Shown in pieces: positions 22,671 to 43,593 of a stretch of DNA of 64,000 nucleotides (positions within the stretch are counted from its first letter, which is position 1; every line of letters begins with the position of its first letter). Under the pieces are notes generated by a model that saw only the letters and a program-made list of their open reading frames with translations, searched no databases and had not been told where the DNA came from. The stretch comes from a plasmid: the NCBI RefSeq assembly GCF_057098645.1, contig NZ_JBXSPU010000002.1. One strand, 5' to 3'. The translations under genes were made by a program, and so were the position numbers.

Positions 22671-23265
22671 TTATCACCTCGTCATTACCACGTATATACA
22701 CAGTATATAACGATTCAGATATTGTCACTAGGATATGCCGCGCCAGCGGCATGGAAGGCGGTACGCTGTGGTTACATGTGATACCGGAGTAAAACCGCCG
22801 AAGCCCGGCGTCAGCCGGTACTGATTGATAGATTTCACCTTAACCATCCCCAGCCCTGCTAAGCCATACCCGCGTTCAGCCATGAAAGAGCTTCTGTGCG
22901 CAGTCGGAGTGGTCCCGACAAGGGTTTACCCGCAGTCGGGGCGTATCTCCGCGTTAGCGGGCCGTGAGGGCCGCTTACGAGCGTGTACTCAATACTTCCA
23001 GCCAGAAGACTGACAGCGATGATGATGTAGTTACAACATTCATAATTGAAAGCGACTCTGTTCCGGCCCGAAGGGCCGGGGCGGGGCCGCTTTTCAGTTA
23101 TGAGGGAGGGGCTTTGTGGTTTCGGTTCTGCGCTGGACCGGGGTTTTTCTGGAGGTTGTTTTTGTGTGTTGTAACTAAAGTGGCTCCGGTCGGGGCCCGC
23201 CGCTTGTGGTGTGAACCGCCCCGGAAATCCTGGAGACTAAACTCCCTGAGAAAGAGGTAAACAGG

Positions 23266-23592
23266 ATGACTAAAAATACTCGTTTTTCCCCCGAAGTCCG
23301 TCAGCGGGCGATTCGTATGGTTCTGGAAAGTCAGGATGAATATGACTCACAGTGGGCGGCAATTTGTTCCATTGCCCCAAAGATTGGCTGTACGCCGGAG
23401 ACTCTGCGTGTCTGGGTTCGCCAGCATGAGCGGGATACCGGGAGTGGTGATGGTGGACTCACCACCGCTGAACGTCAGCGTCTGAAAGAGCTGGAACGTG
23501 AAAATCGTGAACTGCGCCGCAGTAACGATATCCTTCGCCAGGCTTCCGCTTATTTTGCGAAGGCGGAGTTCGACCGCCTCTGGAAAAAATGA
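23266..23592 (+). CDS. IS629 OrfA (108 aa)
   Basis: [62 protein letters not shown] plus leucine zipper typical of IS3-family OrfA. Confidence 0.9.
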
Positions 23593-24479
23593 TGCCACTG
23601 CTGGATAAGCTGCGTGAGCAGTACGGGGTCGGACCGCTATGCAGCGAACTGCATATTGCCCCGTCAACGTATTACCATTGTCAGCAACAGCGACATCATC
23701 CGGATAAACGCAGTGCCCGTGCGCAGCGCGATGACTGGCTGAAGAAAGAGATACAGCGCGTATACGATGAAAATCACAAGGTATACGGTGTGCGTAAAGT
23801 CTGGCGTCAGTTGTTACGGGAAGGTATCAGAGTGGCCAGATGCACTGTGGCACGTCTCATGGCAGTTATGGGACTTGCCGGTGTTCTCCGGGGTAAAAAG
23901 GTCCGTACGACCATCAGCCGGAAAGCCGTTGCCGCAGGCGACCGCGTAAACCGTCAGTTCGTGGCAGAACGACCTGACCAGCTGTGGGTGGCTGATTTTA
24001 CTTACGTCAGCACATGGCGGGGCTTCGTCTATGTGGCGTTCATCATTGATGTGTTTGCCGGATACATCGTGGGGTGGCGGGTCTCATCGTCCATGGAAAC
24101 GACATTCGTGCTGGATGCACTGGAGCAGGCGTTGTGGGCCCGTCGGCCGTCCGGCACAATCCATCACAGTGATAAAGGTTCTCAGTATGTATCGCTGGCC
24201 TACACGCAGCGGCTTAAGGAAGCCGGATTACTGGCATCAACAGGGAGTACTGGCGACTCGTATGACAACGCGATGGCGGAGAGCATCAATGGTCTTTACA
24301 AAGCGGAGGTAATACACCGTAAGAGCTGGAAAAACCGTGCAGAAGTGGAACTGGCCACACTCACGTGGGTGGACTGGTATAACAATCGACGATTGCTGGA
24401 AAGGCTGGGCCATATTCCTCCGGCAGAAGCAGAAAAAGCTTATTATGCTTCCATCGGAAATAATGATCTGGCAGCCTGA
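23589..24479 (+). CDS. IS629 OrfB (DDE transposase catalytic domain)
   Basis: DDE region (WVADFTYV..., [27 protein letters not shown]) typical of IS3-family OrfB. Confidence 0.9.
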
Positions 24480-24559
24480 GTTCACAGATAAAATACTCTC
24501 CAGGAAACCCGGGGCGGTTCATTTCTTTTTAAATGAATGTAATTAAGTAGTTTAAAGGA

Positions 24560-24850
24560 GATATAAACAGGTGTTTAAAAGATATATTGCACCCTGTAAG
24601 ACTGGCGGCTGGCGCTTTATGAGATGAACGGTTGTAACCTTATCGGGAAGTCCCTTGCAGTTTAATGTGGATAAACAAAATTGCCCGTCTGTGAGACGTG
24701 TTTTGCATCAAAAACATGGGGAACGGATGCAGCAGAAGGTGGATGATGAGGTTGTTTTTTGTATGTAGCGCTGCTTTTTTGTGCGCTGCCGGGCTTCAGG
24801 CGTGTGGATGCCTTCGGCGCGGGCCGGATTATTCTGAGGAGGTCACTTTC
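24560..24850 (-). other. Candidate RepFIIA replication origin region downstream of repA1
   Basis: Located 3' of repA1 as in IncFII replicons; DnaA box TTATCCACA present on the minus strand (24666-24674). Confidence 0.5.
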
Positions 24851-41705: not shown

Positions 41706-42337
41706 AAGTGTACTCCATCTTTCATTTTAGATTTCATGCAGCCGGATATAATAGAAGTGTTAAATTTTATTTTTTCAGGAGTGATTCACTCATTCACCAG
41801 TGTTGATTTTTATAACACACTTATATCTACTTCAGAAAGATAACCTGATAAAAAATATTAACTCCGATCACATTCTTCTATATATTCCATCACAATATTT
41901 TGTTTAAAAAATGTTAAATTCACTATCTTCGTGATAATTAACAAACAGGGTACAAAACCAGTAACTACAAAATACAATAAAAAAAATACATATCGCATTT
42001 TATCGAACATAGTGAACATTAGCTATTGCTATATTTTATTTTTTTGTATTAATCTCATTTAAAAAAACAACCACAACGCGAAAACAATAAATAAATAACA
42101 AATAAAACTCATTTTTATTAAAATAAAAAACAAAAGAATATATCCTTAATCACAATATCCAGATGCTCCTCCCCACGTAATATAGACACAGGCCCAAGCG
42201 AGGTTCTGGTTTTCAAATTGTTCCGGACAGAGACCGCCACACCAACTGTGCCGTCGTCACCGATTGTAATCACATTCGATCAGTGAACCGCCCCGGAAAT
42301 CCTGGAGACTAAACTCCCTGAGAAAGAGGTAAACAGG

Positions 42338-42664
42338 ATGACTAAAAATACTCGTTTTTCCCCCGAAGTCCGTCAGCGGGCGATTCGTATGGTTCTGGAA
42401 AGTCAGGATGAATATGACTCACAGTGGGCGGCAATTTGTTCCATTGCCCCAAAGATTGGCTGTACGCCGGAGACTCTGCGTGTCTGGGTTCGCCAGCATG
42501 AGCGGGATACCGGGAGTGGTGATGGTGGACTCACCACCGCTGAACGTCAGCGTCTGAAAGAGCTGGAACGTGAAAATCGTGAACTGCGCCGCAGTAACGA
42601 TATCCTTCGCCAGGCTTCCGCTTATTTTGCGAAGGCGGAGTTCGACCGCCTCTGGAAAAAATAA
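42338..42664 (+). CDS. IS629 OrfA (copy 2)
   Basis: Identical 108-aa product to copy 1 OrfA. Confidence 0.9.
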
Positions 42665-43551
42665 TGCCGCTGCTGGATAAGCTGCGTGAGCAGTACGGGG
42701 TCGGACCGGTATGCAGTGAACTGCATATTGCCCCGTCAACGTATTACCACTGTCAGCAACAGCGACATCATCCTGATAAACGCAGTGCCCGTGCTCAGCG
42801 CGATGACTGGCTGAAGAGAGAGATACAGCGCGTATACGATGAAAATCACAAGGTATACGGTGTGCGTAAAGTCTGGCGTCAGTTGTTACGGGAAGGTATC
42901 AGAGTGGCCAGATGCACTGTGGCACGTCTCATGGCGGTTATGGGACTTGCCGGTGTTCTCCGGGGTAAAAAGGTCCGTACGACCATCAGCCGGAAAGCCG
43001 TTGCCGCAGGCGACCGCGTAAACCGTCAGTTCGTGGCAGAACGACCTGACCAGCTGTGGGTGGCTGATTTTACTTACGTCAGCACATGGCGGGGCTTCGT
43101 TTATGTGGCGTTCATCATTGATGTGTTCGCCGGATACATCGTGGGATGGCAGGTCTCATCATCCATGGAAACAACATTCGTGCTGGATGCACTGGAGCAG
43201 GCGTTGTGGGCCCGTCGGCCGTCCGGCACAATCCATCACAGTGATAAAGGTTCTCAGTATGTATCGCTGGCCTACACGCAGCGGCTTAAGGAAGCCGGAT
43301 TACTGGCATCAACAGGGAGTACTGGCGACTCGTATGACAACGCGATGGCGGAGAGCATCAATGGTCTTTACAAAGCGGAGGTAATACACCGTAAGAGCTG
43401 GAAAAACCGTGCAGAAGTGGAACTGGCCACACTCACGTGGGTGGACTGGTATAACAATCGACGATTGCTGGAAAGGCTGGGCCATATTCCTCCGGCAGAA
43501 GCAGAAAAAGCTTATTATGCTTCCATCGGAAATAATGATCTGGCAGCCTGA
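42664..43551 (+). CDS. IS629 OrfB (copy 2)
   Basis: 295-aa DDE transposase segment, near-identical to copy 1 (R to Q difference in WRVSSS/WQVSSS). Confidence 0.9.
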   Translation: MPLLDKLREQYGVGPVCSELHIAPSTYYHCQQQRHHPDKRSARAQRDDWLKREIQRVYDENHKVYGVRKVWRQLLREGIRVARCTVARLMAVMGLAGVLRGKKVRTTISRKAVAAGDRVNRQFVAERPDQLWVADFTYVSTWRGFVYVAFIIDVFAGYIVGWQVSSSMETTFVLDALEQALWARRPSGTIHHSDKGSQYVSLAYTQRLKEAGLLASTGSTGDSYDNAMAESINGLYKAEVIHRKSWKNRAEVELATLTWVDWYNNRRLLERLGHIPPAEAEKAYYASIGNNDLAA

Positions 43552-43593
43552 GTTCACAGATAAAACACTCTCCAGGAAACCCGGGGCGGTTCA

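Follow-up and report, generated by a model that had tools for sequence, protein, structure and literature searches.

Insertion sequence (IS) copies that lie in the same orientation on either side of a replicon and a set of virulence genes raise the question of whether they form a mobile unit together with the DNA between them. We addressed this question in a 64,000-nucleotide stretch of a plasmid (contig NZ_JBXSPU010000002.1, RefSeq assembly GCF_057098645.1; hereafter the window), in which two IS629 copies, copy 1 (23212-24521) and copy 2 (42284-43593), enclose a RepFIIA replicon, the etp type II secretion genes and stcE, and in which neither copy is flanked by a target-site duplication (TSD). 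The two copies are probably the products of unrelated events, each coupled to the loss of adjacent DNA, with the bracketing being coincidental; we infer the order and the mechanism of these events from the anatomy of the copies, their empty sites and the junctions shared with other plasmids.

A repeat search, combined with reading of the ends, returned the IS629 pair as the single long direct repeat pair of such size in the window, each copy being 1310 bp long and on the plus strand. Both start with TGAACCGCCCCGG and end with CCGGGGCGGTTCA, their ends matching at 13 of 13 bases and, after a 3-bp gap, at 9 more; imperfect terminal inverted repeats starting TGAAC and a length of about 1310 bp assign both to the IS629/IS1203 group of the IS3 family. 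The locus of copy 2 is moreover shared with plasmids of the pO103 type. The original prediction of two full-length, near-identical, direct IS629 copies thus held to the base (16 differences, 98.78% identity), although the term near-identical conceals a mosaic distribution, with 15 of the 16 differences confined to positions 380-890 and none in the first 379 bp. The reading frames are open in both copies: orfA encodes 108 amino acids (23266-23592 in copy 1, 42338-42664 in copy 2) and orfB encodes 296 amino acids in copy 1 (23589-24479) and 295 in copy 2 (42664-43551). The -1 frame relationship of orfA and orfB, the A6 slippery run and the DDE contexts (D, D, E) are intact, and the ALIL frameshift pseudoknot (Rfam RF01497; 23547-23663 and 42619-42735) scores 120 bits in each. 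On these features, both copies look transposition-competent.

Identity to the IS629 annotated on pO157 Sakai was 96.6% for copy 1 and 96.0% for copy 2, and identity to copies annotated as IS3 family/IS1203 in complete genomes ranged from 97.2 to 98.5%. Nothing in the collections came closer to copy 1 than copy 2 itself, the best full-length match elsewhere reaching 98.5%. A collection of 15 billion proteins contains no record of the exact OrfB of either copy, nor of the exact proteins of the junction-spanning open reading frames (ORFs), and the IS629 pool of the host lineage seems to be unsampled. At positions 695-797, a variant block occurs in both window copies and in none of the 11 IS629 copies of pF2_18C_FIB (NZ_CP043544; hereafter pF2) and pO103 (NC_013354).

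Simple insertion of IS629 generates a 3-4-bp duplication (PMC3271280; PMC9943667). Copy 1 lies between CTTGTGGTG and TTTCTTTTT (adjoining triplets GTG/TTT) and copy 2 between TTCGATCAG and TATTGCAAA (CAG/TAT); neither has a 3- or 4-bp duplication, and cross-pairing of the outer flanks (GTG with TAT) or of the inner flanks (CAG with TTT) gave no match either. Re-examination therefore bears out the earlier observation that TSDs are missing and that the outer flanks are unlike each other. As positive controls, the IS2 element at 46155-47485 of the same window has a perfect 5-bp TSD (TGGCT), and pO103 has 3-bp TSDs at two of its six IS629 copies (TAT and GTC); none of the five copies of pF2 has one, so that TSDs accompany just 2 of the 13 IS629 copies examined in the window, pF2 and pO103. 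Since 26 of 47 IS629 sites in O157 genomes also lack a TSD, which was found at only 21 (Rump et al. 2011, PMC3271280), its absence says nothing against the IS629 identity of the elements. Adjacent deletions associated with IS629 and IEE, from a few bp to more than 40 kb, are documented (PMC9943667; bioRxiv 10.1101/2023.06.07.543989), and the missing TSDs in the window are explained by secondary loss of adjacent DNA. The original prediction had likewise called them expected under IS-mediated deletion or rearrangement, which agrees with the 44 bp lost at copy 1 and the tra remnants lost at copy 2, as detailed below.

Comparison of the flanks with related plasmids, which the original prediction had called for, recovered the empty sites of both copies. 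In pF2, the left and right flanks of copy 1 (A and B) are separated only by a 44-bp segment, GGAGGTGCATATCTGTCTGTCCACAGGACAGGCAGTGAACAGGT, which is missing from the window; on the left of copy 1 the window is otherwise identical to pF2 over 163 bp, and on the right over 1200 bp. A one-base variant of the 44-bp segment is carried by NZ_CP148350, and the empty site with the 44 bp present (a 134-bp match, 45+44+45) was found in at least 15 IncFII plasmids among 5,426 complete E. coli genomes. Queries with either copy 1 junction returned no record from the same 5,426 genomes, and the copy 1 insertion with both flanks is absent from PLSDB. The breakpoints show no microhomology and the IS terminus is intact. 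Copy 1 thus displays the marks of an IS-mediated adjacent deletion, namely an exact IS terminus, collinear flanks, 44 missing bp and no duplication. Since its flanks are contiguous save for a conserved 44 bp, copy 1 reads as an insertion with a small adjacent deletion, and we conclude that it is most probably a lineage-specific insertion accompanied by the 44-bp loss.

This insertion lies at a functionally marked boundary. In IncFII plasmids the origin is located between repA1 and repA4, and the repA4 region holds ter sites and contributes to stability (PMC4398462); the placement of oriR relative to the DnaA box was taken from PMC5883639 and PMC4398462. Copy 1 occupies this oriR-repA4 boundary: the DnaA box (TTATCCACA, 24666-24674) is 144 bp away, and the AT-rich stretch of the RepFIIA origin region adjoins the element. 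The RepA4 pseudo-CDS of NZ_CP104540, when mapped onto the locus, starts 10 bp inside the missing 44-bp segment, and what remains in the window is a repA4/ter remnant without its start (22860-23211, minus strand). Within this remnant lies a Ter-like site (GTGTGTTGTAACTAAAGT, about 23159-23181), of which positions 23164-23181 presumably match TerB at 17 of 18 positions. With copy 1 between it and oriR, this TerB-like site is now 1.3 kb farther from the origin. Three Ter-core motifs (GTTGTAAC / GTTACAAC) were noted around the RepFIIA origin, at 23159-23181, 23030-23037 and 24631-24638. We also considered an IS629 hotspot beside IncFII origins and rejected it: in the 70 records with an IS3-family element close to repA, the distances and sites differ from those of copy 1, examples being about 900 bp from repA, past a toxin-antitoxin pair, and upstream of copB.

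The history of copy 2 is of a different kind. Copy 2 together with 800 bp on each side (2910 bp) matched 17 complete plasmids end to end, at 98.4-99.3%, while an 18th match was interrupted by the start of the record; the strains concerned are O103:H2, O121, O45:H2 and related. The presence of both junctions in about 18 pO103-type plasmids indicates that the junction was inherited. Copy 2 interrupts, 578 bp upstream of stcE, the transposase gene of an older IS3-type remnant, of which the last 28 codons are left (42197-42283, minus strand; tblastn); the rest of this remnant survives in pO55 (NC_013942). On its other side it adjoins a truncated traJ with its 5' untranslated region (UTR) (43594-43834, minus strand), of which about the first 45 codons are left (43594-43728; assigned from pO103-type annotation and the ORF).

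Two plasmids without IS629 at this locus preserve the uninterrupted sites, which read ..GATCAG/TAGTCC.. and ..ACAGCG/TATTGT.. and lie 7.7 kb apart in pO55 and 2.64 kb apart in CP148520, in both cases in the same order and orientation as in the window. In pO55 the DNA between them comprises finO, traX, the rest of the IS3-type remnant, the 3' part of traJ and tra remnants. Measured against this arrangement, copy 2 stands in place of the whole stretch between a point upstream of stcE and about codon 45 of traJ. The 2.6-7.7 kb of extant relatives that are missing between the flanks fit the pattern of an IS-mediated adjacent deletion, and copy 2 thus appears to mark an old IS-associated loss or rearrangement. 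The loss of the tra operon beyond traJ, which the original prediction had given as an example, fits copy 2 when compared with these IS-free relatives.

The behaviour of IS629 elsewhere in this plasmid family was explored by cataloguing the junctions of every copy of pF2 (five) and pO103 (six). At the IS left end, the stcE-side half-junction has katP as its partner in pF2 but traJ in pO103 and in the window; the partner of the ehxC-side half-junction is traJ in pF2 and traH in pO103. Such junction swapping is the pattern that would be expected if inverted IS629 copies had recombined, inverting the stcE...ehx block, and the katP segment in this inversion scheme is bounded by two further IS629 copies. 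The 13 IS629 copies are block mosaics, in which right-end markers go with the right flank and the middle is homogenised within each plasmid. Moreover, copy 2 differs from its pO103 orthologue at 23 of 1310 positions while the flanks differ at about 3 of 1600, an excess that indicates gene conversion. The sister plasmids thus show frequent IS629-IS629 recombination. The authors who described pF2 credit flanking IS elements for the 'considerable inversions and rearrangements' of such plasmids (PMC6985150). Alignment of the IS629 of pO103 at 15238-16547 with that of pF2 at 48382-49691 showed that copB, repA, the origin, yacAB and IS91 are missing from pO103 exactly up to the IS629 left end, the right flank of this RepFIIA-side IS629 being unchanged relative to pF2. 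The RepFIIA loss in pO103 is a clean natural case of an IS629-adjacent deletion that kept the IS end, and a precedent for the process proposed here.

Taken together, these data are consistent with the following sequence of events. In an ancestor of the pO103-type plasmids, an IS629-associated deletion, or recombination between IS629 copies, would have created the copy 2 junction, which would then have been passed down with both flanks. More recently, IS629 would have entered an already assembled RepFIIA region at the oriR-repA4 boundary to give copy 1, with loss of exactly 44 bp alongside, including the repA4 start codon, and with the IS terminus precisely kept. The likely route at copy 1 would be a transposase-mediated adjacent deletion, the alternative being a second nearby insertion followed by IS-IS recombination.

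Several points weigh against this account or limit it. At copy 1, insertion with adjacent deletion and double insertion with recombination lead to the same product, between which the sequence cannot tell, and 'private' means that copy 1 is in no other sampled genome, a limit imposed by the fact that the exact OrfB proteins are not on record. At copy 2, the reciprocal half-junctions that would be diagnostic of simple insertions (the traJ 3' part and TAT joined to IS629; IS629 joined to CAG and TAGTCC) are absent from PLSDB. Furthermore, pO103 and pF2 retain the distal tra genes and finO elsewhere and in the other orientation, so that several inversions or deletions are needed and one simple deletion at copy 2 is too simple an account. 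The traJ and traH junctions are both found at IS right ends, and one event alone does not account for this.

For copy 1 only, the double insertion has to be weighed as a route in its own right: if IS629 inserted twice, at points 44 bp from each other and with a TSD each time, homologous recombination between the copies would yield the exact product seen, with intact IS ends, no TSD and 44 bp gone, and IS-IS recombination is frequent in this plasmid family. The final bases of the lost segment, GTGAACAGG, are also similar to the IS left end GTGAACCGC and might attract the element, but the resemblance spans 5-6 bases and may be chance. Since this route needs three events instead of two, and no single-insertion intermediate was present in the collections searched, we consider it unlikely, while keeping it as a serious competitor for that one junction. 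An artefact is much harder to sustain. Misjoins are a classic problem at 1.3-kb repeats, and TSD-less junctions could arise from them as assembly errors; however, the copies differ at 16 positions and were thus resolved separately, about 18 independent complete assemblies show the same copy 2 junctions, and a misjoin would not delete exactly 44 bp between otherwise contiguous flanks, so that we give this explanation practically no weight.

Readings that treat the pair as a unit meet with similar difficulties. In a composite transposon, IS629-RepFIIA-etp-stcE-IS629 would have moved as a unit into its present place, and the two direct copies, their intact outer ends, open transposase frames and ALIL pseudoknots are compatible with this; yet the outer flanks (GTG and TAT) form no duplication around the unit, flank A is contiguous in relatives with inner flank B and not with flank D, to the right of copy 2, pO103-type plasmids possess copy 2 with both flanks while lacking copy 1, and the collections searched contain the unit in no other context, all of which makes such a transposition extremely improbable. 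Alternatively, a plasmid that already bore one IS629 might have taken up a 19-kb RepFIIA-etp-stcE circle with an IS629 of its own, the route being either IS-IS recombination or an IS dimer. The recombination of IS629 copies in this family speaks for such a cointegrate, and so does the make-up of the window, which is a hybrid of toxB-type and pO103/pF2-type backbones: positions 22524-23119 have no mismatch to NZ_CP148350, a toxB/autotransporter/PerC plasmid, and positions 23049-23211 have none to pF2, which places the homologous crossover of the two backbones at 23049-23119, in the conserved IncFII repA4/ter region. The backbones switch, however, not at the IS but 92-162 bp leftward of it, in shared IncFII sequence, so that two plasmids cannot have been fused at copy 1. 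The sequences directly on either side of this copy are both pF2-type and adjacent in relatives, and the recipient junction A-IS629-D occurs nowhere in the collections searched, and we therefore hold the cointegrate to be very unlikely. Since copy 2 is old and shared while copy 1 is private and lies in a contiguous backbone, the bracket is best regarded as accidental and not as a transposed unit, and the view of the copies as a functional pair in the original prediction is not upheld.

A separate issue is whether the pair, however it arose, can remove what it encloses. Direct repeats of 1.3 kb are predicted to be able to recombine, which would delete 19,072 bp including RepFIIA. Neither of the products, the single-IS deletion A-IS629-D and the excision junction C-IS629-B (C being the inner flank of copy 2), was present in the collections searched, including the 5,426 E. 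coli genomes, and no evidence was found there of the bracketed module moving or excising as a unit. Deletion of the module through IS629 recombination is nevertheless mechanistically reasonable, by analogy with the sister lineage that lost RepFIIA beside another IS629. The RepFIB replicon lies just past the right end of the window in relatives, so that the remainder of the plasmid could presumably survive the loss of RepFIIA. It is also conceivable, although we give the idea little credence, that copy 1 and the 44-bp loss have altered or disabled RepFIIA by displacing ter/repA4, and that the IS629 pair makes the 19-kb segment excisable in a recA-dependent manner as a self-replicating circle shuttling StcE and its secretion system between plasmids.

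The segment between the copies (24522-42283) measures 17,762 bp and holds repA, tap, the CopA RNA, copB, etpO-etpC and stcE, in agreement with the approximately 17.8 kb carrying the replicon and the StcE secretion machinery described originally. It was annotated from its 99.8% identity to the annotated pF2, from ORFs and from the Rfam match to CopA. Next to copy 1 lies the RepFIIA origin region downstream of repA (24522-24848, minus strand), 100% identical to pF2 over 1200 bp, followed by the replication initiator gene repA (24849-25682, minus strand; NZ_CP043544 annotation at 100% identity, ORF), the CopA antisense RNA (25767-25856, plus strand; Rfam RF00042, 93.5 bits) and the replication regulator copB/repA2 (25994-26242, minus strand; NZ_CP043544 annotation, ORF). 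With copB, the CopA RNA, the tap leader, repA and a downstream origin with its DnaA box, the replicon is of the IncFII (RepFIIA) type, its parts having been transferred from the annotation of a 100% identical record. The boundary with the etp genes consists of old debris (26471-27341), namely a truncated PDDEXK/DUF2726 gene, an IS110 fragment and an inverted 270-bp IS3-family fragment (27065-27341) that is 86% similar to the first 270 bp of IS629; this debris is kept in pF2, pO103, pO55 and an E. albertii plasmid. The type II secretion genes etpO, N, M, L, K, J, I, H, G, F, E, D and C follow (27353-38961, minus strand; 99.8% to NZ_CP043544), and then stcE, which encodes an M66 glycomucinase (39045-41705, minus strand; NZ_CP043544 annotation, ORF). 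Both belong to the lineage of pO103, pO55 and E. albertii (more than 99% identity), being only 88.9% identical to those of pO157. For the stcE-side junction, pO157 Sakai was dropped as a comparator, its etp/stcE being 88.9% identical and the homology stopping short of the site.

To the right of copy 2, the FinP antisense RNA (43723-43801, plus strand) and the traJ 5' UTR are recognised by Rfam (families RF00243 and RF00107), with 97 bits for FinP and 125 bits for the UTR. FinP and the traJ 5' UTR (43723-43834) are intact although traJ is cut and its neighbourhood lacks the remainder of the tra operon, and can be described as a regulatory fossil. They are followed by traM (43916-44299, minus strand; pO103-type annotation, ORF) and then by an F-type leading region. 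There, a full IS2 (46155-47485; 1331 bp, InsC/InsD ORFs) lies within a DUF932 gene and is absent from pF2, pO103 and pO55. A 4.8-kb segment of the leading region (48296-53139) with ssb, a gene for a 654-amino-acid ParB-like protein and other ORFs is also missing in these three plasmids, and is present in pO157 Sakai at about 93% identity. On the far left, a toxB-like ORF (11527-20556) encodes 3009 amino acids as against 3169 in pO157 Sakai. Homology to pO157 toxB stops at 20839, where an IS91-family element starts (20835-22523; transposase ORF 21153-22352), and toxB therefore looks 3'-truncated.

What the locus documents is ordinary IS-driven plasmid remodelling, with copy 2 already in public records and copy 1 and its 44-bp deletion as a new instance. 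It adds one more IS629 reshaping to those documented for virulence plasmids of the enterohaemorrhagic E. coli (EHEC) type, with little import beyond plasmid bookkeeping, and its value lies in the clean empty-site reconstruction of two junctions and in the lesson that two IS copies may bracket a segment without forming a transposon. The RepFIIA origin of this plasmid now abuts an IS, and IS629 recombination that removes stcE/etp could plausibly account for differences in virulence gene content between strains.

Among known systems, the pO103-type EHEC plasmids (pO103 of O103:H2 strain 12009, and those of O121 and O45:H2) have the same junction of the stcE-upstream sequence, IS629 and truncated traJ-traM, base for base, and the same etp/stcE lineage (99.8% over 18.9 kb). 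Unlike pO103, which lost RepFIIA beside another IS629 and has no copy 1, the window kept RepFIIA and has a toxB/autotransporter/PerC region on its left. Plasmid pF2, from an atypical enteropathogenic E. coli of sequence type 302 (PMC6985150), shares the RepFIIA-etp-stcE block at 99.8-100% and has an IS629 at the same stcE-side site; in contrast to the window, its copy 1 site is empty with the 44 bp present, its stcE-side IS629 is followed by katP, and its traJ junction is on another, inverted IS629 next to ehxC. The IS629 copies of O157:H7 and pO157 belong to the same IS group, with the window copies 96.0-96.6% identical to that of pO157 Sakai, but etp/stcE are 88.9% identical, and the window plasmid is therefore not pO157. 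Finally, pO55 (of O55:H7) and CP148520 share the RepFIIA-etp-stcE block (99.7%) and the same old IS remnants at both of its ends, while having IS629 at neither site: their stcE-upstream sequence runs into the IS3-type remnant, tra remnants and an unbroken traJ breakpoint site, with finO and traX additionally present in pO55. These two plasmids offer the best available picture of the arrangement that preceded both IS629 copies.

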